Shown one piece after another: positions 8,735-57,646 of a stretch of 64,000 nucleotides of DNA. This stretch comes from Puniceicoccales bacterium (GTDB lineage Bacteria; Verrucomicrobiota; Verrucomicrobiia; Opitutales; JAIRLG01), in contig JAIRRP010000052.1 of the NCBI GenBank assembly GCA_031255915.1, positions 2,062 through 66,061 of the forward strand, in the 5' to 3' direction. A program made the translations under genes and the position numbers. Positions within the stretch are counted from its first letter, which is position 1; the number at the start of each line of letters is the position of its first letter. Below the pieces are notes generated by a model. The model saw nothing but the letters and a program-made list of their open reading frames with translations. It searched no databases and was not told the DNA's origin.

Positions 8735-9556
8735 ATGTACCTATCTTTTTTTGGATTTTCTGAAAAACCATTTACCATTAAGCCCAATAAGCACTTGCTG
8801 TTCTTGGGTTCTCCTCATGTCTCGGCGCTATCATTGCTCTGCTATGGCGTGGAAAACAACGATGGCTTTACGGTCATCGTGGGTGAAGTGGGTTGCGGCA
8901 AGACCACCTTATGCCAAGCATTACTAGACCAACTAGATGCCAAAAAATACTTCCCCATTTATCTCCCCATTCCTCCCCAGACAGAAGAAGAACTACTCGC
9001 CTCCTTCATCAGTACGTTCGACATCCAAGAAGTATCATCCGGTAACATCGTCGAGACTCGAAAAGGCATCAAGCAAAAACTCACGTACTACAACCGGCAA
9101 CGCAAACGTGTCCTGCTCATCGTCGATGAAGCGCAAAATCTGTCCAATGCGATGCTGGAAAACATACGTCTGCTCTCCAATATCGAGATCAATGGCAACC
9201 GCGCCATGCACATTATCCTATTGGGACAACCAGAATTGAAACAACACCTGCGACAACGGTGCATGCGCCAGCTACGGCAAAGGATATCCGTCTTTCAGGA
9301 ATTAAGACCATTGAATGCGCGCGAAACGCGACATTATATTCAACACCACTTGAGTCTCGTGCAGACGGAACACATATCACTATTCACCTATTGGGCGATG
9401 CATAAGATTTTCTCCCTGAGCAAAGGTGTCCCGAGAATTATCAATAATATCTGTGATAAATCATTGATATCCGCCTACGTGCGCAATTCCTATAAGGTGA
9501 AGCGTCGCGATGTCGTCCGAGCCTTCCAAGAAATTCAGCAGATAGAAGAATCATGA
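8735..9556 (+). CDS. gspA: ExeA/GspA-like AAA ATPase (type II secretion accessory)
   Basis: The N-terminus MYLSFFGFSEKPFTIKPN resembles ExeA. Walker A is GEVGCGKTT and Walker B is LLIVDEAQNL. Confidence 0.75.
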   Translation: MYLSFFGFSEKPFTIKPNKHLLFLGSPHVSALSLLCYGVENNDGFTVIVGEVGCGKTTLCQALLDQLDAKKYFPIYLPIPPQTEEELLASFISTFDIQEVSSGNIVETRKGIKQKLTYYNRQRKRVLLIVDEAQNLSNAMLENIRLLSNIEINGNRAMHIILLGQPELKQHLRQRCMRQLRQRISVFQELRPLNARETRHYIQHHLSLVQTEHISLFTYWAMHKIFSLSKGVPRIINNICDKSLISAYVRNSYKVKRRDVVRAFQEIQQIEES

Positions 9557-10152
9557 ATTTACTCCATGAAGCTTTACTAAAGCGTCGGCGAGAATCACTG
9601 CCTGTAATTTCCAGACCACCAACAGAAACTCTCCAGTCGACAGAGAGGTTTTGCGATCGACGAGAGCCATTGCATGAGGCACTTTTTCACAAAAAAAGAA
9701 GAGGCATAGGGACCCGATTCCGGAACTTTTTACGCCATTGGAAAATCATTGCCCTCGTGGGAGGCATCCTCAGCGGAATATTTTTTGCCTCACGGCATTC
9801 TCCTTTGGAAGCACAGAATACTCCCTCCTCTGCCGTAAAAAAAATGACAGGTATGCTCGCCGAAATAAGCTCCTCGACAACATCATGGCTAAGGCACATC
9901 TTTTCCCAACAACACAGCGCTTCGCAGCAGAAAAAAATTTCAGAATACCTGAAACAGATCAAAATTCAGGACGTCCAAACATCGGAAACAACACGTGCCA
10001 AGATTCGGATGGGAACAAAAATCTATCTCCCAGGTGCCATCATCAGTGAGGACCCCTGTGTCCGTTTTGTCGGCGTCGAACAAAAGCATATCATATTTGA
10101 GGATCGAGAAAATAGACGTTACACCTACCTCATTGAGGCAATATTGGAATGA
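9553..10152 (+). CDS. membrane protein, possible GspB/ExeB-like partner of the upstream ATPase
   Basis: ATGA start/stop overlap with the gspA-like gene. It has a single TM segment IIALVGGILSGIFFA. The C-terminal pattern IRMGTKIYLPGAIISEDPCVRFVGVEQKHIIFED resembles T2SS-B/PilP-type beta domains (by eye only). Confidence 0.4.
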   Translation: MNLLHEALLKRRRESLPVISRPPTETLQSTERFCDRREPLHEALFHKKRRGIGTRFRNFLRHWKIIALVGGILSGIFFASRHSPLEAQNTPSSAVKKMTGMLAEISSSTTSWLRHIFSQQHSASQQKKISEYLKQIKIQDVQTSETTRAKIRMGTKIYLPGAIISEDPCVRFVGVEQKHIIFEDRENRRYTYLIEAILE

Positions 10153-10204
10153 CAAAAGATTGAAATAGGAAAAAAATCCTCAAACATGGAGACTGTAGTT
10201 ACGA

Positions 10205-10249
10205 TTTTTTTTGCATCTGAAGAAAAAATATACTAGGAATAACGAAATT
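10205..10249 (+). promoter_or_regulatory. conserved upstream block of the three-member secreted family (copy 1)
   Basis: TTTTTTTTGCATCTGAAGAAAAAATATACTAGGAATAACGAAATT lies directly before the ATG. Near-identical blocks precede the two paralogs at 22133..22181 and 24542..24592 (minus strand). Confidence 0.4.
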
Positions 10250-12289
10250 ATGAAGATGTTAAGTCGCACGGTAAAGACAACCGCATGGGTCTTGGGTCTC
10301 TGGGGAATACTATGGGCGGAAGATACCGATTACCTTCATTTTACCCAACTACCGAGCAAAGTTATCTCTTCGAACCTTATGACTCCGACTTTCTCGGGAT
10401 GTCTAATAGAGGAATCTCGACTAAGGCATGTGCCGTTGGCATCTCCAAAAGGAAGAGAATTATTCCGAATCCAATGGGGGAATGATTACTACCACCATCC
10501 CACTAGTGCCATCATCACTAATCTGGAGAATGATCTGAAGCCATTGCCTCCAGAAAAGAATCCGCGGACATGGTTAGAGCGCTGTGGAAGACCTCAAACG
10601 ACGGCTAATTCTTTTTTTGGCATAAAGGTCGTGGAACAGCCGCCTGGGGATAATACCATGAGATTTCAATTTCGACATTTCTCCATAGGAGCAAATAATC
10701 ACTTCGCCGTGAAGCTCCACAATGCAGAGTGGTTATGCCCATGGGACGATACACCTGGCCTCCATCAGTGCTCTCTTCCCAATGGCTATGTATTGCGCAA
10801 AAAATTCAGCACCAACAGGATGAACACCATCATTCCCAAGTCTCATTGGTTCGCATTCGAACTCCAAGGAATAGGTATCGGTGATATGAATTCAAATCAA
10901 TACAGTTCTTTGCTCTGGTTCGTTTTTCTGCTGCCTCCAGAGTCTCGTGACGATGAGAATGTAGGAGAATTAGGAGTGACGCTTGAGTCCATATATCGGA
11001 ATATAGCCCTTTTTGTCCTGGGGCCCGATGGCATAGATCATAGCGCTGAATTCAATAGATGCAAAAATGCCTTAACCGCTTGCCAAGACGCTTTCAGGAA
11101 TTTTGAAAACTCCAAGTCCTCATTCGATTCCATCATCACTCGATATCAGCAAGAGGCGGATCCTACGCGTATTTCGTTACGATTACAGGCCATTAAGCAA
11201 TCCATTCCTACTTTTAAGTCTGTCTGCGAAAACTACCTACAGGCTAAAACAGAGTGTAAGCAAACTTTTACATCATCTTGGGTTCCTACTAGGTCCCAGG
11301 AGATGCTACCGCAGGTTCCAGATGCTTCTGTTCGACGACAAGAAATACCCAGAAAGGATATCTATAATTCAGGTAACTTCAACAATAGCTTTTATTTTTC
11401 TGACGATGAAGAAGATCATCGCTCACGCATCTATTCAGGCAGTGAATACTTTCCAGAAGCTGTCTGTGTACATAGTTATACAGACTTCGGCCCGATCTTG
11501 TGTGAAAAATTATTCGTGAATCTGCTATGGAACGAAACCGCGAAAGGTGATGCTCTTCGGCAGAGATGTCAAATATTTTTCAATGTGGACGCTTTACCAC
11601 AGGAGCTGCAGGGCTTCCTCTTCGATCCCAATGCTCCGTTTGGGAGATTGCGTTTTCAGATACTTGCACAACCCTACAATGAAGGCCAAAATAAAACCCA
11701 AATCCTGCGGCCCCATTATGCCATCGCCAATGGCATATTCCCTGGAAAGGGCAGTCCTCCATTGGTATATGCGCGTTACGCGATGAGACTTTTCGGCGCC
11801 AACTTCATAGATAACCAGGACAATAACGGAAATGATAGGCATTACGGGCACGCTGGTTTTTTAGGCGAACGGCCACAAGGTTTTCTCCTAAAGGAAGTCA
11901 ATACGCATGAAGGTCTTCAAGGCGGTCTGCCAATGTGGGTCGTATCTCCCAATAATTGCCGCATCGCTGGTACAAATGATTATACCAAAAACAAGGTATT
12001 TTACTCCGTTGTCATCGGGCGTTGTATGGAGTTCAATGAATTCGACAACTGGGAACAGGATAACACGGCCATCGTGACATTGCATATCTTATTATCGACA
12101 GGGGATCATGGAAGCCTGTGCGATGAAATGATGCGCCATGAGGAATCTTACGAAAAGATACAGTCGCTCCCAGTTCTTGCTAAAGCATTATACGACCATT
12201 GGAATGATTCGCATCAAAACGACCATCCTAAACCTGAAAATCCATTCAAAACACTCCATAATTTAGTGAAATTACCAGGTTCTCCATAA
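10250..12289 (+). CDS. secreted protein, family member 1 (shared N-terminal module, unrelated C-terminal domain)
   Basis: The start MKMLSRTVKTTAWVLGLWGILWAED matches the paralog start MKMLSRTLKTAVLVMGIWKTIWADP. Residues ~100-240 align by eye with both paralogs (WLERCGR..., WDDTPGLHQCSLPNGYVLRKK, ELQGIGIG, QYSSLLWF). The C-terminal half has no OTU motifs. Confidence 0.7.
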   Translation: MKMLSRTVKTTAWVLGLWGILWAEDTDYLHFTQLPSKVISSNLMTPTFSGCLIEESRLRHVPLASPKGRELFRIQWGNDYYHHPTSAIITNLENDLKPLPPEKNPRTWLERCGRPQTTANSFFGIKVVEQPPGDNTMRFQFRHFSIGANNHFAVKLHNAEWLCPWDDTPGLHQCSLPNGYVLRKKFSTNRMNTIIPKSHWFAFELQGIGIGDMNSNQYSSLLWFVFLLPPESRDDENVGELGVTLESIYRNIALFVLGPDGIDHSAEFNRCKNALTACQDAFRNFENSKSSFDSIITRYQQEADPTRISLRLQAIKQSIPTFKSVCENYLQAKTECKQTFTSSWVPTRSQEMLPQVPDASVRRQEIPRKDIYNSGNFNNSFYFSDDEEDHRSRIYSGSEYFPEAVCVHSYTDFGPILCEKLFVNLLWNETAKGDALRQRCQIFFNVDALPQELQGFLFDPNAPFGRLRFQILAQPYNEGQNKTQILRPHYAIANGIFPGKGSPPLVYARYAMRLFGANFIDNQDNNGNDRHYGHAGFLGERPQGFLLKEVNTHEGLQGGLPMWVVSPNNCRIAGTNDYTKNKVFYSVVIGRCMEFNEFDNWEQDNTAIVTLHILLSTGDHGSLCDEMMRHEESYEKIQSLPVLAKALYDHWNDSHQNDHPKPENPFKTLHNLVKLPGSP

Positions 12290-12366: not shown

Positions 12367-14559
12367 GTGACGGATTGGTATTTTCCTATAATCGGTCTCG
12401 CTATGGATGGAGTAACTTATTATCGAGATATACCTCTCATTACAACAGAACAAAAAGACATTCAATCGAATACGCTTAATTTACTCCAGAGTATTGCGAA
12501 ACAAGGAAACATAGAATCCCATGCGTCAGGCCCAAGCGTGGTGAACTTGTCCTCCCTAATGGTCGGCAAAGATTTAAAGGCCCATGGTAAAATTCTCGGA
12601 GATATCGATACGCTGCTAAAAAGGGCCAATTCCGATGGGGGTCTTGAGGGACTTCTCGCACAACAGATCCCTGAAGGGAATCGGGACCAAATCAATCGAG
12701 CTAAGGAGGTTATCTTAGCGACACTCGTCTCGCTACCACAAAGCGAGCGTAAAGCAATTCTAAACGATCCTAAGCGTCTACAATCAATGTGTAAAAACGC
12801 CATCTTTGGATCTTTAATCTCAAAAAACGATAAGGTCTGCGCGATTTGTTCCAGTAATGTTCAAAAATCTCCCGCATACAAAGGTATAAACCAGCTTGAC
12901 AAAAGTGTTCAGCCATTGGTTCGACAGAGTGCCCAGCGGCTGGAAATGCTCATGACTCGAGCGCCAAATCTGAATGAAAAGCAAAAGGAAGATATCCGCA
13001 CAAAGGCGATGGATTTTTTCCAAAAAACGGAATTTAACAATAATACACTCCATTTTCCAATAAAATCTCCCACTCATCACGATTCCAATGCCCTTGCCCA
13101 TTTAGACTCGAAAAGAGCAGACATGCGTCATCTTGGTTATCTCCTAAAGTCTCTTGGAGAAGACACTTATAAGCAATTCACCATCCCTGATCAAATCTTT
13201 ATGCAGCATGGTCAGGGAGATGTAAACGGAGATTTGACACTTAACCAATGGCTAAAGCGTGGTTCTTCTGCAGATAAGCCACTCAACGTTTCGGTTTCTA
13301 ACGAATACCTCCCAAATCAATCGCCATCACCGGGATCATCCCAAAATCTACAAAAGCCGATAACATCTTCATCATCGAGTTTCAACCCAGTAATACCGGA
13401 GAATACAAAACCAATGCAGCTGAATGTGACGAATTCAGATTCAATATCGCCACAACCATGGATACCGCAAAGTAAACTACCGCAAACACCATTTAGACAG
13501 CCAACTGCTCTATTTAGGTCGAAACAAACGTCAAACACCATGCCGAGGGCGCAAGATACGCACCTAAAAATAGATCTGCTACAGGCAAATCTAGAGCCAT
13601 CTTTAACTACACCGACATATGCATCAACGCCGCCAAATCCACGGGCAATCCAAACTAAAGCGCCAATGTCACCAGGTTATCCGGTACAAATGCCAGGCTC
13701 TCCGCCACAATCAAAGGTAAATACATCGTCAGAGCTAAAGCCGGAGATAAGTCTAAAGGAACAATTACAAACGGCGAAATCGAAATTGACAAAAACCGAT
13801 GCGCCGGTGGTTAAAGGAATACAGAAGCCTCAATTGAGTCCAGAAACCCAGGCTATGCAGGATCAAGTGAAGACTTTTTATACAGGATCATCAGGAAATG
13901 TTCCGGATACCATTGATCACAGGAGGACCAGGGACGCACTCAACAATTTGCTACAATTTTCAGAACCATTTCTTTCCCCATCTTCAGATTTTCATGAAAC
14001 AATAAATCAGTTTCTTTATGTTTTAGATAACGTAAATTCACGCATTGCCTACTGCGATAACAATGGTGAACGAGAATTAATGCTCAGCGTTCTAAAATTC
14101 GTCGATACTCATATGGATCCGTTTTTAACCAATGCATTTAATCAAAGTCCTGCTGAACAACGCCTAAGTATTATGAACGGCAGCAAAGCTGCCAGGGATC
14201 AAATGACGAGTAACATTGAGCGCCTAAACCACGGTATTAAAAAGGATAGAGACATAGAGAAAACAAGAGATGAAATGATGTCCACATCACTAGAATGTCT
14301 GGATAAAGTCAAAACCGACCCGAAGGCAAATCTCGACGATATAGCAGGAACGCTCATAAAAGAGATAAAGAAGGACCCCAATTTTGCCTATATACTTGCG
14401 TCAATGGATGAACCTAGTAGTCCGGATGAATCTGATAAGTTATCACCGCTTCAGCAATTGATAAATGGTTCTCCCACATTTAAAAACTACATAAACGATA
14501 AAGAAAATGAAAAGGTTAAAGCTAACCTTCTAGATGGTAATTCTAAATTATCATTTTAG
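12367..14559 (+). CDS. large hypothetical protein with a central Pro/Ser-rich tract (effector-like)
   Basis: 730-aa ORF with a GTG start (start uncertain; the next Met is at 12403) and no signal peptide. Low-complexity P/S/Q-rich region at about residues 315-455. Helical C-terminal part. Confidence 0.6.
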   Translation: MTDWYFPIIGLAMDGVTYYRDIPLITTEQKDIQSNTLNLLQSIAKQGNIESHASGPSVVNLSSLMVGKDLKAHGKILGDIDTLLKRANSDGGLEGLLAQQIPEGNRDQINRAKEVILATLVSLPQSERKAILNDPKRLQSMCKNAIFGSLISKNDKVCAICSSNVQKSPAYKGINQLDKSVQPLVRQSAQRLEMLMTRAPNLNEKQKEDIRTKAMDFFQKTEFNNNTLHFPIKSPTHHDSNALAHLDSKRADMRHLGYLLKSLGEDTYKQFTIPDQIFMQHGQGDVNGDLTLNQWLKRGSSADKPLNVSVSNEYLPNQSPSPGSSQNLQKPITSSSSSFNPVIPENTKPMQLNVTNSDSISPQPWIPQSKLPQTPFRQPTALFRSKQTSNTMPRAQDTHLKIDLLQANLEPSLTTPTYASTPPNPRAIQTKAPMSPGYPVQMPGSPPQSKVNTSSELKPEISLKEQLQTAKSKLTKTDAPVVKGIQKPQLSPETQAMQDQVKTFYTGSSGNVPDTIDHRRTRDALNNLLQFSEPFLSPSSDFHETINQFLYVLDNVNSRIAYCDNNGERELMLSVLKFVDTHMDPFLTNAFNQSPAEQRLSIMNGSKAARDQMTSNIERLNHGIKKDRDIEKTRDEMMSTSLECLDKVKTDPKANLDDIAGTLIKEIKKDPNFAYILASMDEPSSPDESDKLSPLQQLINGSPTFKNYINDKENEKVKANLLDGNSKLSF

Positions 14560-14758: not shown

Positions 14759-16435
14759 ATGGTAAGGATAAGGACAGGGAAGATAGGGAATGCAGATCAA
14801 GAAGTGTCAAAGACGGGAAAGAATGCACGTAGCATCAAGTCCTATAAAGGTGATCAAAGCATCGCTAGAAAATCTGGATCATCGAGCTTTATAGAGAGCC
14901 TCAATGGTAAAGGTCTCAAAGGGTTTATTGCTAGTAAGACAGGACTACTAGGCAGATTATCCGGTAACCACACTGCAAAGATGAAAATCATGCAAGCGGT
15001 ATCCAATATGACGAAGGATATCGTTAATGATGATGATAGAGAAATCGCCGGTAAAGATTTTATCAGAAGCGAGTTTAAAGAAGTAGCCCAAGATCCTAGA
15101 TACAAGCACCTTGTTGCAAGTGCCCTGGGTTCAGCTATGGGTGGTGCAGCTTGGATTAAGAAAAGAGATGCTAATGGCGATGCGACTGCTCTCTCAAAAA
15201 ATGCGCTCGAAACCTTTATGAACCTTGTCGAGGAGGGTGTTTTGACAGATAAAGACATACAAACAGTCATGGAAAAACTAGGCCCAAAGGGGACTGGTGC
15301 CCTGCAGAACCCAGATTCTCCATTCTGGAAAGGCCTTCAGAAACTTTCTGAGGAATCGCGCGTCAAGTTGGCCGACATCATCCTTACATCTCAGACTTAT
15401 CAGGAAAAGAATGCACGACTTCAGGAAATAAAGACAACATTGAATAACGCCATTAGTGGAGATAAACCCCTGGCAGAGTTAAATAGTGCTCTCTTTGACT
15501 GTGACGACGTAGAGAAACAATACCTTCTTGAGAGGAATGGATTCCAAATACCTCAAAATATCGATACCCTCGAAATGTGCGATCATAAGATTAAGGAAAT
15601 AACCACCGATTTTCGAGGTGGAGCAAGAGGAGTACGTGATGGAGTAGCAGACAGCGAAGCTCTCGCTAAGCACCTCGCCGATAAAACGAAACAGGTCCTT
15701 CAAAACGCCCCGAAAAATACTGAGGTACAAAAAGCGTTGACCCAATGCCAAGAATTATTCGCCGAAGCCCAAGGTCTAGAAAAAGAGATTTTCTCGCTCC
15801 GGTCGAGTATCATAAATGGTCAGCACGGCTACTCACTTGAAAAGGCTTTGGATAAAAAAATTGCAGATGACAAGAAGTTAGGAAAAGCTGGTATCACCAC
15901 CTATACGGAGTGGCTGGCAAAAATTACAGAAAGGACCAAGAAAAAACATGACATAGATGATGACATAGCAAAGGCACTTTCGTTAGAGCTAAATGACCCT
16001 CAACGACTACCAGAAATCAATAAATGCGCCAATAAGCTCATAGATTATGCCGATTTTTTCATCAAAAATGCAAAGATAGAAGAGGACATCATGGCCAATC
16101 GAGATGCTCTAAAACTACCCAAACCTCCTATGAATGAAGTGTTTTCTCAAGGCGGTACGGGCGATCTCTTGCAATTTGGCATTAATCAATGTATAAAGTT
16201 ATTAACAGAGGGCATAAAGAGTGCGATTCAAGTCCACGTTCCCGAGGGCAAACTAGAAGCATTTACTAAAAAACTTGACATTATCCAAGCACAAGGTTCA
16301 TCGGGTGGGCTGATGCGTTTTATAAAAAATGTAGCCCAAAATCCAAGAACCTATGGTTTACCAGAAGATTTTCAAATACCAGATAGCCTGAATCAGCTCG
16401 TGGATATCGCTGAAGAATTCAACAAGTTTGCCTAA
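14759..16435 (+). CDS. large hypothetical protein (effector-like, Lys/Glu-rich helical)
   Basis: 558-aa ORF with AGGGAAGG upstream of the ATG, a Ser/Lys-rich disordered N-terminus, and no recognisable motif. Confidence 0.6.
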   Translation: MVRIRTGKIGNADQEVSKTGKNARSIKSYKGDQSIARKSGSSSFIESLNGKGLKGFIASKTGLLGRLSGNHTAKMKIMQAVSNMTKDIVNDDDREIAGKDFIRSEFKEVAQDPRYKHLVASALGSAMGGAAWIKKRDANGDATALSKNALETFMNLVEEGVLTDKDIQTVMEKLGPKGTGALQNPDSPFWKGLQKLSEESRVKLADIILTSQTYQEKNARLQEIKTTLNNAISGDKPLAELNSALFDCDDVEKQYLLERNGFQIPQNIDTLEMCDHKIKEITTDFRGGARGVRDGVADSEALAKHLADKTKQVLQNAPKNTEVQKALTQCQELFAEAQGLEKEIFSLRSSIINGQHGYSLEKALDKKIADDKKLGKAGITTYTEWLAKITERTKKKHDIDDDIAKALSLELNDPQRLPEINKCANKLIDYADFFIKNAKIEEDIMANRDALKLPKPPMNEVFSQGGTGDLLQFGINQCIKLLTEGIKSAIQVHVPEGKLEAFTKKLDIIQAQGSSGGLMRFIKNVAQNPRTYGLPEDFQIPDSLNQLVDIAEEFNKFA

Positions 16436-30295: not shown

Positions 30296-30816
30296 AAAAG
30301 AGATTGTCCTTTGCGGCACGGGGAAAGCTGGTTTTGGGACAAGGAGTGCACCTATCTTTTAGAACATTAAATTTGGTCAGGAGTGGCTGTGGCTATTTTA
30401 CTATGTTGAAAAGAATAAAAGGTATATATGAAAATCCCACAGATCTCCGATATTTGGGATGAAAAGCGAGCTCGGGTAAAAGGAGAATAGTTTTTTATTT
30501 ACTCAGGAGCTCCGATGAGGGAAATAACTACAGGAAGAGAGGATATTATACGATGTACAAAAACCTCTCTGCCTTGTTGTGTACCCTTAGAAACATTATA
30601 CGTTTAGTAGGTAAACGGACCAGGCGATCTACAGCACATAGCAAAATCTGACGACCGCTGCTTTCTTCCGAACCTGACGGAGTTAGCCGACTTGTTATTG
30701 CACAGAACCCAGCCCGAAATATTAATGGGAAGAAGTCAAAGAAAAAGGCAATGCAAAAATTTTCTTCCTGACTTTCTTCCTGAAATGGTTCTTTTTTGAG
30801 GGATAAAAAGGAGAAC

Positions 30817-35850: not shown

Positions 35851-37599
35851 TCACAGATGGAGAATATCCGGCCGGAACGAGATTTTGAGATGGTAATACT
35901 TCCCTGGCAGCAGAAAAATAGGATTAGTTCGAGACAGAATCTGCAAGAAATGGATATGCCCATAAGGAGTTCTGTAGGCCGGATCATCGGCAACCGTGAT
36001 GAGTTCCTTCCACGCCATACCAAAATCATCCTTCTCGACAACCGCTCGCAGGCTCTCCTCTCCCAGCATAAGACTATGAGCACTGAGAACCGAATGAGGA
36101 GCCGAGAGCGCAATGACATAGCGCACCTGATCGACCTTGAGTCGATTCCGAACCACATAGACAAATTCTGAAGTGATGCCCTCCTCTGAGAATGCCCATG
36201 AGACGCGACAACGAGCCAGATCGGGCACAATGACTTCCCGATGGCTGATCAATTCCGGCTGATCATAATGAAAGGAAAAGGAACGCTTCAATCCCATGCC
36301 CGTAGCGCAATTTTTTCCGTAAAACGAAGGGACAAAGAGCTGCCCATTAATGGTCAGTTCGGGCTGCAGGATGGGCAAATAGGTATCCGCCGGGGCATCG
36401 AAAATTCCGGGACAATGGGGAAACGCCAGGCTGTCGCAGGAACCTTTTCCGCCACCTGATATGAGGGGCAGTGCATAATGCGTGCCCTTTTGGGAATTGC
36501 GATAGACAAAAATTCCCTGCTCTTTTTTGATGCTGCGGTCAAATTGAACCAACCGGCCACCTGTCTTTTCTTCAAGACCGGTATCATCCAATGGCAGTGA
36601 TATTTTCTTGGCCAACATCGCCCACTGACAGAGGTAGCGTACGGCATCGAAATTAGCCCTACGGGTGGAGAAAATGACCGGCATTGTCCGTTCTCGATCT
36701 CGAATCACAATGGTGCCGTGGCCCTGGTCGACGTAATGCAAAAAGAAATAATGAAAAAGCCTGCGAATGAGGCTTATGTATAGCGTCTGTTTATCGCTGC
36801 CGACCCATCCCTCCGAAAGGGCCAGTATTGCCGCATTAAGCGTGTAGAGCTGCGCATAAAACCCCGTGTGCTTCCCATAAGCCCAGGCAAGACCATCCGT
36901 GCGAACAAGTTCTGGCAGAAGACAAAGATAACATCCCCCATAAGTTCGGATACTCGGAAGAAGGCGTTTGGTGACATCGCTGTTGATATGCATTCGCATT
37001 ACCTGCTGGACGAAGTTCAATATCCATAGGCCGATGATGTCGTAACAACCTCCGATGCCCTCTTCCGGAGCGCTGTCCATAAAACCATTGGTCATCTTCT
37101 TCGAGACATGGCCTAAAAAAGCTTCGACGAGTGGTAAGGTTTCGTCTTTTTTCGAAAAACCCATGTTGAAGCCGACGAAGGACCTCACAACATCCGATAG
37201 GATACCGTGACCACCCTGCCGAGGATGAAGCATTCGCTCTGTCACCAATGCCTGTGTTTCCTGATCCAGGCTTTGCCAAAGAGGATTACGAGCACATGTG
37301 GTTCCGAAACAGAGCAACGTCAAGGAAGCACAACTCGATGCGATGTCATCCGTAAGCGGGATATAGAGTTGTGAACGAACACATCGGGCTGCCAGTTCGG
37401 GTAACTGAAAGTCACTGAGCTGAAGCTCTTGTAGGCAACGATAATACTCTCCGATGGAAAAAGCGGCATAGGCGGAATCCTCTAACGCAAGAGATTCTCC
37501 TTCCGCCGGAAGGACATCACCATTTTCAGCGATAAAGGGCAAGCTTTGTCCCAAGACAGCTCGCGCTAAATCGATGCATTGCTGTGAAAAATTTTGCAT
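35851..37599 (-). CDS. hypothetical protein (582 aa), co-directional and immediately downstream of the secretin
   Basis: Long uninterrupted ORF with no signal peptide or motif recognised. The N-half looks helical and aromatic-rich and the C-half beta-rich (by eye only). Confidence 0.6.
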   Translation of the reverse strand: MQNFSQQCIDLARAVLGQSLPFIAENGDVLPAEGESLALEDSAYAAFSIGEYYRCLQELQLSDFQLPELAARCVRSQLYIPLTDDIASSCASLTLLCFGTTCARNPLWQSLDQETQALVTERMLHPRQGGHGILSDVVRSFVGFNMGFSKKDETLPLVEAFLGHVSKKMTNGFMDSAPEEGIGGCYDIIGLWILNFVQQVMRMHINSDVTKRLLPSIRTYGGCYLCLLPELVRTDGLAWAYGKHTGFYAQLYTLNAAILALSEGWVGSDKQTLYISLIRRLFHYFFLHYVDQGHGTIVIRDRERTMPVIFSTRRANFDAVRYLCQWAMLAKKISLPLDDTGLEEKTGGRLVQFDRSIKKEQGIFVYRNSQKGTHYALPLISGGGKGSCDSLAFPHCPGIFDAPADTYLPILQPELTINGQLFVPSFYGKNCATGMGLKRSFSFHYDQPELISHREVIVPDLARCRVSWAFSEEGITSEFVYVVRNRLKVDQVRYVIALSAPHSVLSAHSLMLGEESLRAVVEKDDFGMAWKELITVADDPAYRTPYGHIHFLQILSRTNPIFLLPGKYYHLKISFRPDILHL

Positions 37600-37711: not shown

Positions 37712-37856
37712 TTCGGAGGACGTCGTCAAAAAAGTTTAACAAAGGGAAAAAGAGAGGAAAGATGGAATGGAAAAGAAGACATATAGGAGACATAACCTAT
37801 TAGGTGAGTGGAACAAGATGAGAAGGTTGCTATCTGGTTTTAACGACACACTCTAA
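37712..37856. repeat. AT-rich palindromic MITE-like repeat, copy D (variant subtype shared with copy A)
   Basis: ttcggaggacgtcgtcaaaaaagtttaacaaagggaaaaagagagg...gtggaacaagatgagaagg...ttttaacgacacactctaa. The secretin stop codon (cta at 37853..37855 on the plus strand) lies in its terminal ctctaa. Confidence 0.75.
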
Positions 37857-40069
37857 TGCCCACGTCGATGCCGGTACTTCCACTTGGCAGTGGGCGGGAC
37901 AATGGCGCGCTTTTCCGGCATGGATGGCTCCAGGAGCGAATTTTCCGATGCTTCTGCCGGCATTTCTCTATTGGTATCCTTCAACGGCATACCATCGGCC
38001 GAGAGGATATTGGCCGTGACGAAGATCAGGAGATTTTTCTTTTGCGTTGTCTCGCCGTGGGAACGAAACAGTTTCCCCAACAGAGGAAGATCACCGAGAA
38101 TGGGAACCTTATCATGAACTTCTTTGGCCTCCTTGTGCATGAGGCCGCCCATCACAACCGTAGAACCATCCTGAATGGTGAGTTCTGTCTTGATCTCTCG
38201 GATGGAAAAAATGGGCTGATAAAATCCCGAGGGTGTGTAGACAGTCTGGCTCGAATTCATGGCGACGCTCGTACCTCCATATTCGACGAATCCCTCGAAC
38301 TCCGTGACGACGGGGTTGAGCCGCAAGTCGATATGTCCATTATCTTCTACGGTGGGGATAGCGGACATCTCGATGCCTACTTTGCGCGTCTGAAAATTCT
38401 CAGGCCGGCCAGCGGTAATCGTAACACCGGCGCCAGAGTTGTTAATACTAGAGCTCCCCACGTCGGATTTCGTCTCACTATAACGGGCCGGGTAACGCAG
38501 TTCCTGTGCGACGGTGATGGAGGCCATTTTTCCCGAAAGGACCGTGATTTTTGGAGCACATATCATTTCGGCCCCCGTGTTTTGTTCAAGCGCCTTCATC
38601 ATGAGATTCAACTTACCACCACTGATGACGCCTACGAAATCTCCGAGAGGAACGGCGTTGTTGCCGTAATTGGCAGCATGAGGAAAAATGGGAGGACTGT
38701 TATCGATGGAAACGCCATCCGCATTACCGGCAGAGGGCACGATGCGTCCCTTACCCATCGAAGTCCTCTGGGTGGCAAAGGCTTCGGTTAATGTGCGGAT
38801 GTTCGTCGTGAAATTTCCGTCCCTGTCGCTACCGGAACCGAAGCGCCAAGTGTTCCCTCCTGCTGTGAGACCCTTTTTAAATCCCCACTGAAGGGCAAAT
38901 TCATCCAGGGCACCTTCTTGGATTTCAACGAAGCGTGTCTCGATTTCCACCTGCTTGGTTTCGCGATAACGGCACAAAATAGTGCCCAATCGACGGAGGT
39001 TAAAGGGCGTGTGGGTTACGATTAATTGCGTTCCATCGAAAACCATATCGCTGCCGGCAGTCCCGTGAAAATCGATACCTGCCCGCTGGAAGAAGTTTTT
39101 GAGGTATGCCTCTTCAAGGACTATGGTAGGGGGATGGGTATCCGAGGAAGAGGACATCGGAGGATCATCCGAGACTTTTCCCATGATTCTAACGACCGTT
39201 CCGCGCGAGATGGGAAAAAATCTCGTCTCGAGGGCACTGGGTTCTTTGGGATTAAAAAACACGACGGCACCATCGATGATATCGAATTGGTAGTGAACCG
39301 CTTTAGCGACGAAGCGCAGTATGCGCTCCAGTGACATGCCACAGAGTCGCAACGTGAGCGTCGTAGAGGGGACATTTCCCAAAACGACCATATTGAATCC
39401 CCTCTTCTCCGGCGAGAGAGAGGGGTCATCGTGCCGTATCGCCATTTCCTTAAGCACTTCTATGGCATGCCCAAAGCTGGCTCCCTGGAACTCGATTTCC
39501 GGCAGTACGATGCTTTGGAGCCTTTTTATAATGGCGGTTTCCTCGTCCATGTCCTGACAGGAAGTTTTTTCTGAAGTATTTTGAATCATGGGCCATTTAC
39601 CTGAAGGAAGATATGAGGTCTTCGGCTGCGATTTTCTGTATTTCGCACCGTCATCCTGCCTTCGTTTGGCAAGACAGAGTCGTTCTCCCGCCCTTGCATC
39701 GGCCGAGTTTTCGTCCAGATAAAGTACATGGCGGAAGCAGAGTAGGGCCCTATCAATCTGGCCAAAGGTGTAGAATTTATATCCGAGCGCCAGCCATTCC
39801 TGGGAGGAATTTTCCCAGGAAGAGGATGCTGCTTGGTCGGGAATATTGTTTTCGGAAGAGGGAAGTATATGACTTGGTCGGGTATTTACGGGAAAAGAGG
39901 TTGCTGGATTGGGATTTTTATGGTGGATTAGGGGGGAATCCGAGTAGGTACCCGAGAGGCTTATTTTCTGGATAAACCTGCCGAGGGTTTCCCCATGGCT
40001 GAGGGTGTGGAAATGGCAGCAACAGACTATCCCAAAAAGGAGCCACTCTCTGCACTTTTTTTTCACCAT
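37853..40069 (-). CDS. gspD: secretin (GspD/PilQ family) with N-terminal TPR-like segment
   Basis: C-terminal secretin signature GSTVVMGGLMHKEAKEVHDKVPILGDLPLLGKLFRSHGETTQKKNLLIFVTANIL, with KQVEIETRFVEIQEGALDEFALQW at the domain start. TPR-like WLALGYKFYTFGQIDRALLCFRHVLYLDENSADA. The start was set to the ATG at 40069 (AGGGAGGA upstream, MVKKKCREWLLFGIVCC signal-like) because upstream codons come from repeat R2. Confidence 0.85.
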   Translation of the reverse strand: MVKKKCREWLLFGIVCCCHFHTLSHGETLGRFIQKISLSGTYSDSPLIHHKNPNPATSFPVNTRPSHILPSSENNIPDQAASSSWENSSQEWLALGYKFYTFGQIDRALLCFRHVLYLDENSADARAGERLCLAKRRQDDGAKYRKSQPKTSYLPSGKWPMIQNTSEKTSCQDMDEETAIIKRLQSIVLPEIEFQGASFGHAIEVLKEMAIRHDDPSLSPEKRGFNMVVLGNVPSTTLTLRLCGMSLERILRFVAKAVHYQFDIIDGAVVFFNPKEPSALETRFFPISRGTVVRIMGKVSDDPPMSSSSDTHPPTIVLEEAYLKNFFQRAGIDFHGTAGSDMVFDGTQLIVTHTPFNLRRLGTILCRYRETKQVEIETRFVEIQEGALDEFALQWGFKKGLTAGGNTWRFGSGSDRDGNFTTNIRTLTEAFATQRTSMGKGRIVPSAGNADGVSIDNSPPIFPHAANYGNNAVPLGDFVGVISGGKLNLMMKALEQNTGAEMICAPKITVLSGKMASITVAQELRYPARYSETKSDVGSSSINNSGAGVTITAGRPENFQTRKVGIEMSAIPTVEDNGHIDLRLNPVVTEFEGFVEYGGTSVAMNSSQTVYTPSGFYQPIFSIREIKTELTIQDGSTVVMGGLMHKEAKEVHDKVPILGDLPLLGKLFRSHGETTQKKNLLIFVTANILSADGMPLKDTNREMPAEASENSLLEPSMPEKRAIVPPTAKWKYRHRRGH

Positions 40070-40231
40070 ATCCTCCCTAAAATCTTTAGGCTTTAGGCTA
40101 GAATTTTCAAGGAAATAAGAAGGTATAACAGGGGATGCGGCGCGACGGTTTTTTGACAAAGGCTTCGTCACTATTTTGTTGGCCCGGAGAAGGAAATGGA
40201 TGATCCTGACCTTGGGGTGCTCTGCTGGCCT

Positions 40232-40332
40232 GGCCGCCTTTGCGGCGAGGAAAAAATGTAAAGCGGGAGCTTTCATTTTTTCTTGCCGCGGCCCGCATAG
40301 CGGGCCAGAGCCCGAAGGGCTCAAAGGCGGCC
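40232..40332 (-). repeat. GC-rich cloverleaf-like repeat, copy R2 (inverted orientation)
   Basis: ggccgcctttgcggcgaggaaaaaatgtaaagcgggagctttcattttttcttgccgcggcccgcatagcgggccagagcccgaagggctcaaaggcggcc. Its reverse complement is collinear with R4/R5. Confidence 0.85.
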
Positions 40333-40522
40333 AGCCCGACCGATCGACCGGAGACGCTGCCCAGATAATCGCACAAATGCCCATGCGCCTAACGCGAATA
40401 ACCCCAGCCCATCGGAGACGCTTGCCTAGACGCAGGCTCCATTCGCCCGAAGAAAATAATACCACTCCATAAAGTTCATTTACGCCGGTATTTTCTTCCC
40501 CATATTCCCAGAGGTTTACATC

Positions 40523-41427: not shown

Positions 41428-43545
41428 ATGGAAATGCGAGCACCTAGGAGAAGAGTCGTCAAAATGTATCGGGCATATCTTCCCCATTTATTAGCATGGA
41501 CACTACGGTGTTGGGTTGCCCTTTATCCGCAGGCCACGGATGCCGCCGAGGGTATTTACGGCTTTTCCCTTCACGACTTACTCTCTTCCCAAACCACCGA
41601 CCATTCTCCTTATGCCGCGAACCCTCGTCGGGCGTGGACAATGCCCTTCAATGCCCTCATGGTGGCCGCCTGCGCGTACTCCTCCTCTTCTCCATACACC
41701 ACCTCAGGGTATGGCCCACAGGCATCCGTTTTCCCCTTTTTATCAGAAAGGGAAATCTTTGCCCACCACTCACGAACCATTTTACAGCTGCTCACCAAGC
41801 TCTTCTACTTCGAAGAGCATCCCATCCTCAATAAAGAGCAGAAGGAAAAAGCGCGCATCCTGGCATCAAGGGAATGTGTGCCCAACCATCGCGATGTGCT
41901 GCATGACCTGAAGGCAACATTGGCCACTTGGCTGACACTCTATCGCGGACGAAGATTGAGGTGGCAGCACAACACGACACCGCTTTCCAAAGCCTTTCAG
42001 TGGGCCCTTTGGCGTACCTGTCCTTCGGCTGACCCACGGGCCTTTATTCCCCTGGAAGAATGGTATATTCGCATCCACAGCCTGCGGCAAGCACTGTCTC
42101 GCCATCTTTCATCACCATTACACCCCATAGGCAATACTTCCTCTTCCATCTCACCGCCTATACCTCCCCTAACCGCCAAGGGAAAGTATCATCAAATTCT
42201 GCAAGGGCTCGACGACCTTGGAAATGAATGGATTCTCAAGCCATTTCACTTCCAGGAGCATGTCGGAGGTTGCCTCTGCAGCGGTGTATTGCCGCATCTC
42301 TCTCATCTTATCGGCCGCAACGTCATGAGCTATCGCCTGGGAGAATGGATCTGTCCCGGAATGGTCGTCGAAACATACCCATGCCTCATCCCAAATTTTA
42401 CAGCCGAGACCTCTCATCTCAAGACTTTTTCCCTGGGCATATGCATGAGGAAGGCGCGAGGAATTCCCTTCACTTATTATTGGAAACCAAGAACAGAGCA
42501 GGACCATAAGTGCGCAAAACTGGATCAAGAGAGGGACATCGTTCTCTACATATTAAGCCAACTTGTGGCGGGAAAGCGTCCCGACGAGCCGCTGGAATCG
42601 CTTCGGAAAAGCGACGAACTCAACACCCTCTTCGCCTCGGATGGTGCCGAATTACAAGGCGCTCTGGCACAGTGGCAATCCCTCTCTTCCGTGATAAAAA
42701 CTCTTTTTTTCGATGCCTGGAAACGTTACGAAGCGGAAGTAAATCAACTTCACCAGCGGCTCTCTCCGGGTACTCTGGTCCGCAACATCACGCGGATGCA
42801 ATGGCTCGATGCGCTCCTGCTACAGGGCGATCGGCATCATCATAATTTTTATGTCGCCATCGACGAAAATCCCTATGCGATCCAGTTGATCGACAATGAC
42901 CAGTGCCTGGGTCCACTCCACCCAAAATCGCATTATACTGCATTTCCCGCAAAGATTTTTGAAGAGCAGATGGGCGTATCACTCGATGACTACTTCCGCA
43001 ATCGAGGGCCGACCATTGCTGAATTATGGGCCCACCATGGAGGAAAATCCGTCGCTCCTCTTCCGCAAATCATCGACGAAACCACGGCTAAAAATTTTGA
43101 GCATTGTTCTTCAGAAATAGCAGCATCGCTGGCCGATGGTTGGCTGCTACCGGAAGAAATTTCCGCCCTACAGCACCGTCTACAGGCCATCCAAGCATTT
43201 ATAGCACTATTGAGAACTCGCCATCGCGTCATTCCTGAAGACCCCTCTCTTTGGGAAAATTCGTCCATCACCGCCCTCTTGCAATTCCATGATCCGGAGA
43301 TATACGATCCCTTGTGGCCCGAGACTATGTACATTCGAAATTCCTCCGAGAAAACCCAGAGCAATCCCATTCGCGTCCTGACGCTCTACCAGAAACTCTG
43401 CCGAGAAAAAGACCGGGAGCAGAATACGTACCACCAACTGAGAGCCTGTGTCGATGTTCTGCCAAAGTCCGTAATGCCCGAAAAAGCCTCTCCAAAGGAA
43501 TCCTCTTCGGCTTCATCCTCTGTTTCGGCCGGGCGCCGCCTTTGA
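41428..43545 (+). CDS. hypothetical protein with kinase-like catalytic loop (PI3/PI4-kinase type GDRHxxN ... IDND)
   Basis: 705 aa. LLLQGDRHHHNFYVAIDENPYAIQLIDNDQCLG spans residues 463-495 (42814..42912). A candidate ATP-Lys lies in NEWILKPFHF. The last 3 codons and the stop are supplied by repeat R3. Confidence 0.6.
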   Translation: MEMRAPRRRVVKMYRAYLPHLLAWTLRCWVALYPQATDAAEGIYGFSLHDLLSSQTTDHSPYAANPRRAWTMPFNALMVAACAYSSSSPYTTSGYGPQASVFPFLSEREIFAHHSRTILQLLTKLFYFEEHPILNKEQKEKARILASRECVPNHRDVLHDLKATLATWLTLYRGRRLRWQHNTTPLSKAFQWALWRTCPSADPRAFIPLEEWYIRIHSLRQALSRHLSSPLHPIGNTSSSISPPIPPLTAKGKYHQILQGLDDLGNEWILKPFHFQEHVGGCLCSGVLPHLSHLIGRNVMSYRLGEWICPGMVVETYPCLIPNFTAETSHLKTFSLGICMRKARGIPFTYYWKPRTEQDHKCAKLDQERDIVLYILSQLVAGKRPDEPLESLRKSDELNTLFASDGAELQGALAQWQSLSSVIKTLFFDAWKRYEAEVNQLHQRLSPGTLVRNITRMQWLDALLLQGDRHHHNFYVAIDENPYAIQLIDNDQCLGPLHPKSHYTAFPAKIFEEQMGVSLDDYFRNRGPTIAELWAHHGGKSVAPLPQIIDETTAKNFEHCSSEIAASLADGWLLPEEISALQHRLQAIQAFIALLRTRHRVIPEDPSLWENSSITALLQFHDPEIYDPLWPETMYIRNSSEKTQSNPIRVLTLYQKLCREKDREQNTYHQLRACVDVLPKSVMPEKASPKESSSASSSVSAGRRL

Positions 43546-47695: not shown

Positions 47696-47772
<77 letters not shown>

Positions 47773-47794
47773 AAATCGCACCACGCGAAGCATA

Positions 47795-47880
47795 TGGTGC
47801 CCAGGGCGGGACTCGAACCCGCACGTCCTTACAGACAAAGGATTTTAAGTCCTCAGCGTCTACCATTCCGCCACCAGGGC
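47795..47880 (-). tRNA. tRNA-Leu (anticodon UAA), long variable arm
   Basis: The reverse complement reads GCCCTGGTGGCGGAATGGTAGACGCTGAGGACTTAAAATCCTTTGTCTGTAAGGACGTGCGGGTTCGAGTCCCGCCCTGGGCACCA, with anticodon loop CTTAAAA. Confidence 0.9.
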
Positions 47881-56122: not shown

Positions 56123-57646
56123 TCAGGCGTTTGTCTCTCCTGATGCAATCCTCGCTTTTTCAATCCGGACGCTTAATTTTTTGACAGAGAATAACCAAAT
56201 ACTGCAAATGCAGATAAAGATACCAAAGACATAGGGCGCAATGGTAAAGTAGGTAGCACCTGATATCAGCGCCAACATAGCCGCCTGAATCCAGGCACCT
56301 CCCGCTTTACCCAGGCGGCCACCCACGACATCCACAACCGCTTTCCCCTTTACCTTCATCTCCTCACTAAGCGGAATATAGGCCATCTCCTTCGTCAGAT
56401 CAAAAAGCGCATATTTCGTCGATTTCGCAATCGTTAAAATGACGGTACCCAAAAGAACAGCTGCCACCAATGGGGTTATACCCACGGTGCCCAAAAGGCC
56501 CGAAAGGTTCTCCTTAAAGAGGACAAATATGAAGAATAAACCTCCCAAAAGGAGCGTGATGGCCGGTGTAATAGCCGCGGCCGTGAACCAGCGGAAAGCG
56601 CGCAGTACATTCCCTCCGACAATCATCATGATGATGGAACAAATGCCGGTCCAAAAGGTGTAGCGGCTCATATAGGCATTGTACGCATTCGGATTGGTAC
56701 AATACTGCCCCAACTGCTTCTTCCAAAGCCCTTCCATCAGGTTAATACTAATGCCGTAACATACGATTAAAGAGGCAATGAGGAGTAGGTAAGGTGACAT
56801 GAAGATATCCTTCAAACTTTGCCAAAAGGGTGCTTTTTTCTTCTTCTTGGAGACGCCTGGCAACTCCGGCTTGTCGTAAAAACGCTTATCGGGTAGCACA
56901 TAGGCATAGATCCAACGATAGATGAGCATTGTCGATATCCCTGAAAACACAACCATACCCATGAGCCAATTCAGGGAAATCTGCCATGGATCCATCCCAG
57001 CGGCCGATGTATCGGTCATTACGGAAAATTTTTCCCCTAACCATCCGGAGAATAGCAACGCCACCTGGGCCATAAGCCCAAAAAAGGCGTACACACGCTT
57101 CGCCTCTGATGTCTTCGTGACCTGATTGGCGAATTGCCAAAAGGAGAGGGATAAAATGGCACTGCCCCAAATTTCAGCGAGGATATAGAAGAGTGCATAG
57201 GACCAAATGCCGACGATGGCCAGTGGCCATCTCAAAAATTCCGGTGCGGCCGCTTGCCATGCATGTACCGTCTCTACGGAGGGATGCAGTAGGCTTAAAT
57301 TAGGGTAAATGAGGAACGCGAAAGCCCCAAAAAAAGCGATAAACGGCGTGAGCGTGGCGTAGAACAACTTCTCGTTACTCAAAATATCACTCGCTTTCGC
57401 GTACAAAAGCATGAAAATGACCGCCGATGGCATGACGCAAAAGCCCTTCAGGAAGGGAATGACCTCCGCATCGGAGCCCGGTCCCGTGACCACGAGAGCA
57501 TCTTTGATATTCCTCAGGCAGGAATAATTGAATAAGATGAAAAAGAAAATCAAACTCATCGGAATAACCTTCTTCAACTCGTAAGCATGGATGGGGAAGA
57601 AAACCTTACGCCATTTACCGAACTCTGGCTGCATCACCTCAGACAT
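56123..57646 (-). CDS. tlcA: ATP/ADP translocase (TLC/NTT nucleotide transporter family)
   Basis: 507-aa multi-pass protein. FFPIHAYELKKVIPMSLIFFFILFNYSCLRNIKDALVV...AEVIPFLK...ILAEIWGSAILSLSFWQFANQVTKTSEAKRVYAFFG parallels chlamydial Npt1 / rickettsial Tlc almost motif for motif (from memory). Confidence 0.88.
   Translation of the reverse strand: MSEVMQPEFGKWRKVFFPIHAYELKKVIPMSLIFFFILFNYSCLRNIKDALVVTGPGSDAEVIPFLKGFCVMPSAVIFMLLYAKASDILSNEKLFYATLTPFIAFFGAFAFLIYPNLSLLHPSVETVHAWQAAAPEFLRWPLAIVGIWSYALFYILAEIWGSAILSLSFWQFANQVTKTSEAKRVYAFFGLMAQVALLFSGWLGEKFSVMTDTSAAGMDPWQISLNWLMGMVVFSGISTMLIYRWIYAYVLPDKRFYDKPELPGVSKKKKKAPFWQSLKDIFMSPYLLLIASLIVCYGISINLMEGLWKKQLGQYCTNPNAYNAYMSRYTFWTGICSIIMMIVGGNVLRAFRWFTAAAITPAITLLLGGLFFIFVLFKENLSGLLGTVGITPLVAAVLLGTVILTIAKSTKYALFDLTKEMAYIPLSEEMKVKGKAVVDVVGGRLGKAGGAWIQAAMLALISGATYFTIAPYVFGIFICICSIWLFSVKKLSVRIEKARIASGETNA

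Follow-up and report, generated by a model that had tools for sequence, protein, structure and literature searches.

The locus examined here raises the question of whether a conserved N-terminal region joined to unlike C-termini serves as a delivery device for interchangeable cargo or works as a domain in its own right. The gene concerned, M1, lies in a 64,000-nucleotide stretch of contig JAIRRP010000052.1 (assembly GCA_031255915.1) of a Puniceicoccales bacterium; we refer to this whole stretch as the window. An initial annotation of the sequence had proposed that the M1 product shares its signal peptide and roughly its first 240 residues with two OTU paralogs, here M2 and M3, and that its C-terminal part is one of several swappable cargo domains joined by low-complexity linkers. 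We find that the shared region, which we call the A module, is indeed fused to different tails elsewhere, but that the C-terminal domain of M1, the B module, is in all likelihood an ancient, diverged duplicate of A followed by a helical tail, and not unrelated cargo. In other words, M1 is better described as a tandem of two diverged module copies than as a module plus unknown cargo.

The A and B modules of M1

Compared by blastp with all six-frame open reading frames (ORFs) of the window, the M1 product has M2 and M3 as its only paralogs. M3, matched as the ORF at 22358..24544(-), aligns with M1 residues 1-255 at 41% identity (E 1.4e-46), and M2, matched as the ORF at 20000..22135(-), with the same residues at 40% (E 1.6e-40), which bears out the shared N-terminal region; the blocks that had been singled out in it (WLERCGR/WLERSGR, AVKLHNAEWLCPWDDTPGLHQCSLPNGYVLRKK, and ELQGIGIG/EIQGQGIG) were all found, in register. 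Similarity limited to the signal peptide is rejected by these alignments, since they reach residue ~255. Past that residue M1 gave no alignment to any ORF of the window, and its C-terminal ~300 residues are as unlike the C-termini of M2 and M3 as had been claimed: in two comparisons of a B profile with the M2/M3 tails, the hhalign probability (Prob) was 0.35% and 0.2%, so that a diverged OTU domain is rejected for the M1 C-domain. No DGxC...HY motif pair was seen in the M1 C-terminal region, residues 400-679 have no Pfam match at E<=10, and no Pfam or NCBIfam family was found for M1 as a whole.

The resemblance of B to A can be followed by eye, the blocks FAVKLHNAEW…LPNGYVLRKK…FAFELQG…LLWFVFLL of A being echoed in B by YAMRLFGANF…RPQGFLLKEV…FYSVVIG…AIVTLHILL. 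Comparison of profiles with hhalign gave Prob 41% (E 2.8e-4, 169 aligned columns) for six A copies and four B copies, 92.3% (E 5.4e-7, 189 columns) for 22 and eight copies, and 93.4% (E 2.5e-7, 187 columns) for 22 and 20; between alignments A3 and A4 the values were 89.6%, 1.9e-6, and 38 columns. The raw score of 51 compares with 12.6 when the B columns are reversed, with a mean of 13.5 (maximum 23.8) for column-shuffled controls, and with a mean of 33.1 (maximum 42.6) when blocks of eight columns are shuffled, a treatment that keeps the motifs and destroys their order. Unrelated profiles, those of the OTU-like tail and of a 199-residue protein encoded upstream of M1, match A and B at Prob 0.1-0.2%. 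A hidden Markov model (HMM) of A matches the B region in five proteins at the same motif, and the B HMM matches the A region of the related protein P0002 at locus L003 (E 0.005). In the AlphaFold2 models of A and B, made independently, beta structure is followed in both cases by two or three helices, then by seven or eight strands, and then by helices. When their secondary structures are compared by way of the hhalign alignment, the two agree at 74 of the 126 structured positions, whereas most shifted registers give ~20%. For B the model has a predicted local distance difference test (pLDDT) score of 78 and a predicted template modelling (pTM) score of 0.85.

The A module is delimited in M1 by an HMM envelope at residues 18-237, and its model (pLDDT 80, pTM 0.78) is confident for residues ~58-233; these data support the view that A is a real, autonomous domain of ~220-230 residues. 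As the initial annotation had stated, neither half of M1 resembles anything described: A and B match nothing in Pfam, NCBIfam, or the sequence profiles of the PDB, and a Foldseek search of the PDB with the two models returned nothing significant (best E 7.7e-3 and 3.8e-2, template modelling [TM] score <=0.24). The weak, non-significant neighbours include immunoglobulin (Ig)-like pilus chaperones. In BFVD the A model reaches a high Foldseek probability (0.97-0.99, but TM 0.33-0.36) solely with uncharacterised giant-virus proteins, from viruses of protists (Mimivirus LCMiAC01, Hyperionvirus, Fadolivirus, and Catovirus), and these matches are too weak for a common fold to be called. A Cys/His enzyme appears unlikely for A, as the candidate catalytic residues, Cys in RCGR and His in GLHQ, are not invariant across 22 module copies.

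M1 opens with a predicted Sec-type signal peptide (MKMLSRTVKTTAWVLGLWGILWA, followed by ED) that has a basic n-region and a 14-residue hydrophobic core and would be cleaved after LWA. Signal peptides were judged by eye. The cleavage motif, cut between (I/L)WA and (D/E), is kept in M1, M2, M3, and P0002, and M1-M3 and most full-length relatives have a basic n-region, a hydrophobic core of 12-15 residues, and a small residue at -1 (…IWA, then DPD). The ATG at 10250 is supported as the start of M1 because it lines up with the starts of M2 and M3 and follows a DNA element common to the three genes. A start at TTG 10211 is unsupported, and so is the public gene call P0001, which begins at residue 63. 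That model, from JGI, drops the signal peptide and the beginning of the A module; the M2 model P0006 (starting VSGLGS…) and the models of several relatives are truncated at the 5′ end in the same manner. With truncations of this sort, automated annotation would fail to flag these proteins as secreted.

Low-complexity linkers had been attributed to all three proteins. They are found in M2 and M3; that of M1 is not visibly low-complexity, and its similarity to the M2 and M3 linkers is not significant (E 0.1-0.3). Ahead of the last helix, M1 (~12230-12286) and most B modules have a conserved C-terminal motif, P(K/E)P(K/E)NPFxx(L/F)xxL. NPF is known as a short EH-domain-binding motif of eukaryotes, and host mimicry by the motif can be conceived of but is purely speculative. 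M1, P0002, M2, and M3 all end in (S/Q)P, and the 3′ ends of the M1, M2, and M3 genes have no DNA in common.

A rare family and its duplicated unit

The M1 family is very rare. A word-indexed search of 5.8 billion proteins gave four matches, and when 1.84 billion cluster representatives were searched exhaustively by HMMER with an N-module profile built from six sequences, 19 proteins were found, 18 of which are true relatives. A profile of the M1-type C-domain added 14 further proteins, and a search with an alignment of the three paralogs recovered one genome locus. P0020, with FN3 repeats (E 7e-4), was judged a false positive from its repeated KIQWTDGSY-like motif. All members with a named source come from Puniceicoccales metagenome-assembled genomes (MAGs), P0034 excepted; the locus tags are LBD40, LBD54, LBT57, and LBF21, and one isolate name is Pcl387_bin38. 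In P0034 (8001-9530 of L008/L009) a B module is joined to an unrelated N-terminal region, on a contig that is labelled as an Oscillospiraceae MAG, has 30% GC, and encodes a PyrG just 50% identical to that of the window. This protein would be explained either by the module having been transferred to a different bacterium of the termite gut or by a fault of binning or labelling.

Mapping of architectures by HMM on all members bears out the claim that one module is fused to different C-terminal domains, among them B, an OTU-like region, a protein kinase, coiled coils, and additional copies of A. The commonest order is signal peptide, A, linker, and B (M1, P0002, P0003, P0004, P0008, P0009/P0021, P0016, P0025, P0026, P0028, P0031, and fragments). 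P0014 has a signal peptide, two A modules, and B, and P0005 has three A modules in a gene that ends at the contig edge. In M2 and M3 the signal peptide and A precede the OTU-like tail; A is joined to a protein kinase domain in P0012 (PF00069, 37.6 bits against a cut-off of 31.7), to a truncated kinase-like tail in P0017, and to long coiled coils in P0010, P0013, and P0018. B follows a signal peptide directly and is itself followed by a Pro-rich tail in P0036, and in P0034 it comes after a transmembrane segment or signal peptide and the unrelated region mentioned above. P0017 (L007 10001-11803) stops just before the kinase catalytic loop, and the ORF that follows it (L007 12633-13058) contains a faint kinase continuation (E 0.58); P0017 could represent a kinase fusion that is split or decaying.

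Support for calling the M2 and M3 tails OTU domains is weak. Their Peptidase_C65 (otubain) scores are 18.5 and 11.2 bits, under a Pfam gathering threshold of 24.3, and the match covers the Cys loop. VAGDG(S/N)CGFWA and NHYKAI are invariant between the two proteins; we take the motifs DG(S/N)CGFWA and NHYKAI, in that order, to resemble the Cys-loop and His-loop motifs of OTU proteases. The two C-termini have no sequence match in the PDB, and a homologue search with the OTU-like tail found none.

An AT-rich element of ~38 nucleotides (GATTTTTTTTGCATCTGAAGAAA…, with a TTGCAT core) lies 10-50 nucleotides upstream of each of the three paralogs and nowhere else in the window. The 38-mer consensus matches upstream of M1 and of M3 with 2 mismatches each, where chance would give 0 matches, and the 14-mer TTTTTGCATYTGRA has exactly three matches, in the upstream regions of M1, M2, and M3. 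Between M1 and M3 the element is ~90% conserved, more than the coding sequence. A similar element precedes the ortholog P0002 (L003), and other lineages have a different common upstream element (CGCTTTTTATCTCGACARAAGTAAATTA…). The element is likely to be a family-specific promoter or operator. A scan for terminator and promoter consensus sequences around M1 was uninformative. Since the promoter-like element is common to the paralogs, the duplicated unit would comprise the promoter-like region, the signal peptide, and A. The A-module tree is grouped by lineage rather than by architecture, with M1, P0002, M2, M3, and P0010 in one clade; this clustering therefore points to duplication within lineages and subsequent replacement of tails.

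Family genes recur at two loci. The GlgP locus of the window, L001, L011, and in part L004 contains GlgP, an AAA_22 ATPase, a membrane protein of 197/199 residues, and one to three A+B genes; in L002, GlgP has an A+coiled-coil gene directly behind it and then a further A-module gene. The Asd/IspD/PyrG locus contains two A+OTU-like genes in the window, three tandem A+B genes in L005, one A+B gene in L006, and a gene for signal peptide, B, and tail in L010. P0017 directly follows a secretin gene, a 184-residue gene, and T2SSE in L007. Between the window and the Puniceicoccales contigs, housekeeping proteins have 58-82% identity, with GlgP at 82%.

M1 begins 97 bp downstream of the ATPase gene and the 199-residue gene, which the initial annotation had called a gspA/gspB-like pair. 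The position and the ExeA-family ATPase stand, and on four contigs an M1-type gene comes after such an ATPase; the GspB-like label fails every sequence test applied. The best NCBIfam model for the 273-residue ATPase, TIGR03015 (PEP-CTERM-associated ATPase), matches over its full length with 222 bits, under a cut-off of 324.5. Its Pfam matches are of the ATPase type only, and it has no transmembrane segment or periplasmic peptidoglycan-binding domain. The 199-residue protein is 40-45% identical to its counterparts upstream of M1-type genes in L001, L004, and L011. It matches nothing in Pfam or NCBIfam, and a profile of four orthologues finds nothing in the PDB at E<=10.

A proposed host-directed role and its rivals

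ATP/ADP translocases are a hallmark of energy parasitism, and the translocase encoded in the window suggests that the contig comes from an intracellular bacterium. Pcl387 MAGs derive from lower-termite guts (bioRxiv 10.1101/2025.08.05.668610), and termite-gut Opitutales with reduced genomes and NTT transporters are putative endosymbionts of flagellates, including the intranuclear Candidatus Nucleococcus (PMC11257099; PMC8204192). We infer that the window belongs to a Puniceicoccales endosymbiont of termite-gut protists. To our knowledge, little has been described of how Verrucomicrobiota living inside protists manipulate their hosts, and we know of no effector repertoire described for Nucleococcus-type symbionts of termite-gut flagellates.

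We incline, with some reserve, to the view that the M1 family, with M1 as its founding-type member, consists of lineage-restricted, Sec-exported, multi-module proteins that are directed at the host, in termite-gut Puniceicoccales that appear to live inside protists. Each protein would start with a cleavable signal peptide and a mainly beta A module of ~220 residues. The family would grow by tandem duplication of the unit of promoter-like element, signal peptide, and A module, and replacement of the 3′ part would yield the A+OTU-like, A+kinase, A+coiled-coil, A-A-A, and A-A-B arrangements at two recombination-prone loci, those of GlgP and Asd. Following Sec export, the proteins may leave the periplasm through a type II secretion system (T2SS) and act on the eukaryotic (protist) host. 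A is probably a working domain, one that binds, and more than a mere delivery tag, because it occurs in tandem, with three copies in P0005 and two copies plus B in P0014; the long Pro/Ser/Ala-rich linkers between repeats and the A+B tandem itself likewise argue for binding or adaptor functions over a pure export tag. A and B might thus be ligand-binding or adaptor domains whose tandem copies suggest avidity, while the variable tails would supply enzymatic or scaffolding activity.

A could instead be a portable module for delivery or targeting, such as a determinant recognised by the T2SS, with interchangeable cargo behind it. In favour of this, A is invariably the first module, immediately behind the signal peptide, and has at least four unrelated kinds of tail; some family members adjoin T2SS genes; and A and the signal peptide are duplicated along with the promoter-like element. 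We nevertheless find this explanation rather unlikely. A is most often joined to B, its own diverged copy, rather than to foreign cargo; P0005 and P0014 contain three and two copies of A, which would be needless for an export tag; B-type modules can lack A and stand directly behind a signal peptide, as in P0036, or behind an unrelated N-terminal region, as in P0034; and no T2SS export domain of such a kind is known. We are decidedly sceptical of the strongest form of the idea, in which A, with its paralog B, would suffice, as one folded domain, to carry any cargo (kinase, OTU-like protease, coiled coils) from the periplasm to the host cell or nucleus through the T2SS; if true, it would make A the first modular, sequence-definable T2SS targeting signal.

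Two other explanations keep the proteins closer to the bacterial cell. Long Pro/Ser/Ala-rich linkers between repeated beta modules give P0005, M2, and M3 a beads-on-a-string appearance, and the weak, non-significant structural neighbours of the modules are Ig-like pilus chaperones and adhesin lectin domains, so that A and B might anchor on or decorate the outer surface, with the tails displayed at the interface of symbiont and host. It is hard to give such adhesin-like retention much credence, given that no lipobox, C-terminal beta-barrel, PEP-CTERM, or other sorting motif was seen, that the structural matches have TM scores below 0.25, and that kinase and OTU-like domains normally work in the host cytosol or nucleus. 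M1-type A+B proteins might, on the other hand, be no effectors at all and serve the ExeA-family ATPase and the 199-residue protein as an accessory of the envelope or secretion machinery, for instance in secretin assembly or peptidoglycan remodelling. The gene order of GlgP, AAA_22, 197/199-residue gene, and A+B gene is kept in the window, L001, L011, and in part L004, and an ATPase that lacks the classical ExeA periplasmic domain could conceivably have a separate periplasmic partner. Machinery parts would not be expected to form tandem arrays of two or three, to evolve fast (27-60% identity) with variable copy number and architecture, or to be fused to kinase, OTU-like, and coiled-coil tails. 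Moreover, M1 has its own promoter-like element, which is also present at M2 and M3 at another locus, and the L002 family member after GlgP lacks the ATPase pair. An accessory role seems very improbable to us.

Several points weigh against the host-directed reading itself. Synteny with the GspA-like gene may simply reflect the common ancestry of close genomes, to judge from the identity of their GlgP proteins, and in L002 a family member follows GlgP with no ATPase and 199-residue gene pair between them. Some free-living bacteria have NTT transporters as well (PMC11257099). Our view covers 64 kb of the genome, so that other secretion systems may exist outside it, and secretion, localisation, and binding are all predicted from sequence, with a signal peptide recognised by inspection. 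The homology of A and B stands at Prob ~92%, not >99%, and their models were compared by order of elements. Nothing recognisable resembles the fold of A and B, and it is their repetition and architecture that suggest a binding domain. Finally, the OTU assignment of M2 and M3 lies below the Pfam threshold (18.5 versus 24.3 bits), and no homologues were found.

Polymorphic toxin and effector families (Rhs, CdiA, LXG, and MIX-type) combine a conserved N-terminal trafficking domain with variable C-terminal domains. The M1 family resembles them in its conserved N-terminal region, its linkers, its unrelated and replaceable C-termini, and its tandem paralogs that turn over at fixed loci. Unlike theirs, its N-module is a new domain that follows a Sec signal peptide and is no marker of type V, VI, or VII secretion; its tails are of eukaryote-directed types (kinase, OTU-like, coiled coil) rather than antibacterial ones, the commonest being a paralog of the N-module; and no immunity genes are evident, nor did a small conserved ORF stand out downstream of its members, although the downstream ORFs were not searched systematically. 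Intracellular bacteria are also known to use eukaryote-like effectors, such as the OTU deubiquitinases ChlaOTU and Legionella Lot and the Ser/Thr kinases Legionella LegK. The OTU-like motifs of M2 and M3, the Pkinase domain of P0012, and the ATP/ADP translocase of the organism recall these; ChlaOTU, Lot, and LegK, however, use type III or type IV secretion, with no Sec signal peptide or A module, whereas M1 has no recognisable catalytic domain and the OTU membership of M2 and M3 falls short of the Pfam threshold.

Chlamydia CPAF and the Legionella Lsp substrates are Sec/T2SS-exported proteins that reach the host cell. The M1 family likewise has a predicted Sec signal peptide, a secretin is encoded in the window, and secretin and T2SSE genes stand beside P0017 in L007. 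We know of no domain or signal common to T2SS substrates; here, by contrast, one domain is common to all the candidates, whose T2SS export is predicted. ExeA and ExeB (GspA and GspB) form the secretin-assembly pair of Aeromonas and Vibrio, and the AAA_22 ATPase gene of the window likewise overlaps a gene downstream of it that encodes a small bitopic membrane protein. Unlike ExeA, the ATPase has 273 residues and neither a transmembrane segment nor a periplasmic peptidoglycan-binding domain, and unlike ExeB, the 199-residue protein matches no T2SSB model or solved structure.

Taken within the known theme of effectors with conserved N-termini and variable C-termini, the M1 family is real, modular, and very rare, and is made up of two domains that are new and related to each other. 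A and B are two new domain families and provide a concrete, searchable marker, and their fusion partners (kinase, OTU-like protease, and coiled coils) point to host-directed functions. That all candidate T2SS substrates here have one folded domain in common bears on the question of what the T2SS recognises.

Other features of the window

Table 1. Coordinates of the M1 family and of associated features in the window
Feature	Position	Strand	Description
AAA_22 ATPase, ExeA/GspA family	8735..9556	+	273 residues, ATPase domain only; Pfam AAA_22 (PF13401) E 1.7e-25
199-residue single-pass membrane protein	9553..10152	+	gene overlaps ATPase gene; "GspB-like" by position and topology only
M1 upstream element	10203..10240	+	promoter-like, contains TTGCAT, common to M2/M3
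M1 coding sequence	10250..12289	+	679 residues: signal peptide, A module, linker, B module
M1 signal peptide	10250..10318	+	predicted Sec-type, residues 1-23
M1 A module	10319..10984	+	residues ~24-245, mainly beta, three short helices, common to M2/M3
M1 inter-module linker	10985..11380	+	residues ~246-377
M1 B module	11381..12286	+	residues 378-679, probable diverged A duplicate and C-terminal helical tail with conserved PKPxNPF motif
M2 coding sequence	19997..22132	-	711 residues: signal peptide, A module, S/P-rich linker, OTU-like C-terminus
M2 OTU-like C-terminus	20000..20815	-	
M2 A module	21407..22063	-	
M2 upstream element	22143..22184	-	14-mer at 22167-22180
M3 coding sequence	22355..24541	-	728 residues: signal peptide, A module, S/P/Q-rich linker, OTU-like C-terminus
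M3 OTU-like C-terminus	22358..23134	-	
M3 A module	23807..24472	-	
M3 upstream element	24558..24595	-	38-mer consensus match
Prepilin-type (pseudopilin-like) protein	28194..29048		
Secretin	37853..40465	-	Pfam Secretin E 4.5e-36; outer-membrane channel of T2SS or type IV pilus type
TLC-family ATP/ADP translocase	56123..57646	-	Pfam TLC E 6e-173, full length

In these 64 kb no complete gsp set was seen, and the secretin could belong to a type IV pilus. Directly downstream of M1 are two ORFs on the forward strand, one of 730 residues (12367-14559) with a centre rich in S, P, T, and Q and one of 558 residues (14759-16435), neither with a Pfam or NCBIfam family. They sit in the stretch of lowest GC in the window (0.41-0.43, versus ~0.50), and L006 has homologues of the two, with 44% and 30% identity, upstream of PyrG. 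These ORFs may be further effector candidates that lack an A module.

Three other large ORFs, at 41428-43545(+), 35851-37599(-), and 48037-50376(-), have no significant family. Of these, the one of 705 residues gives faint matches to PI3/PI4-kinase and Fam20C kinase (E ~0.04), and the one of 582 residues adjoins the secretin gene. Ordinary housekeeping RNAs are also present: a small signal recognition particle RNA at 30615-30714(-), a tRNA-Pro/tRNA-Leu pair at 47696-47880(-), and a tRNA-Glu at 25889-25966(+), the last of these ~500 bp past a rhomboid gene (24623-25384) that follows M3.

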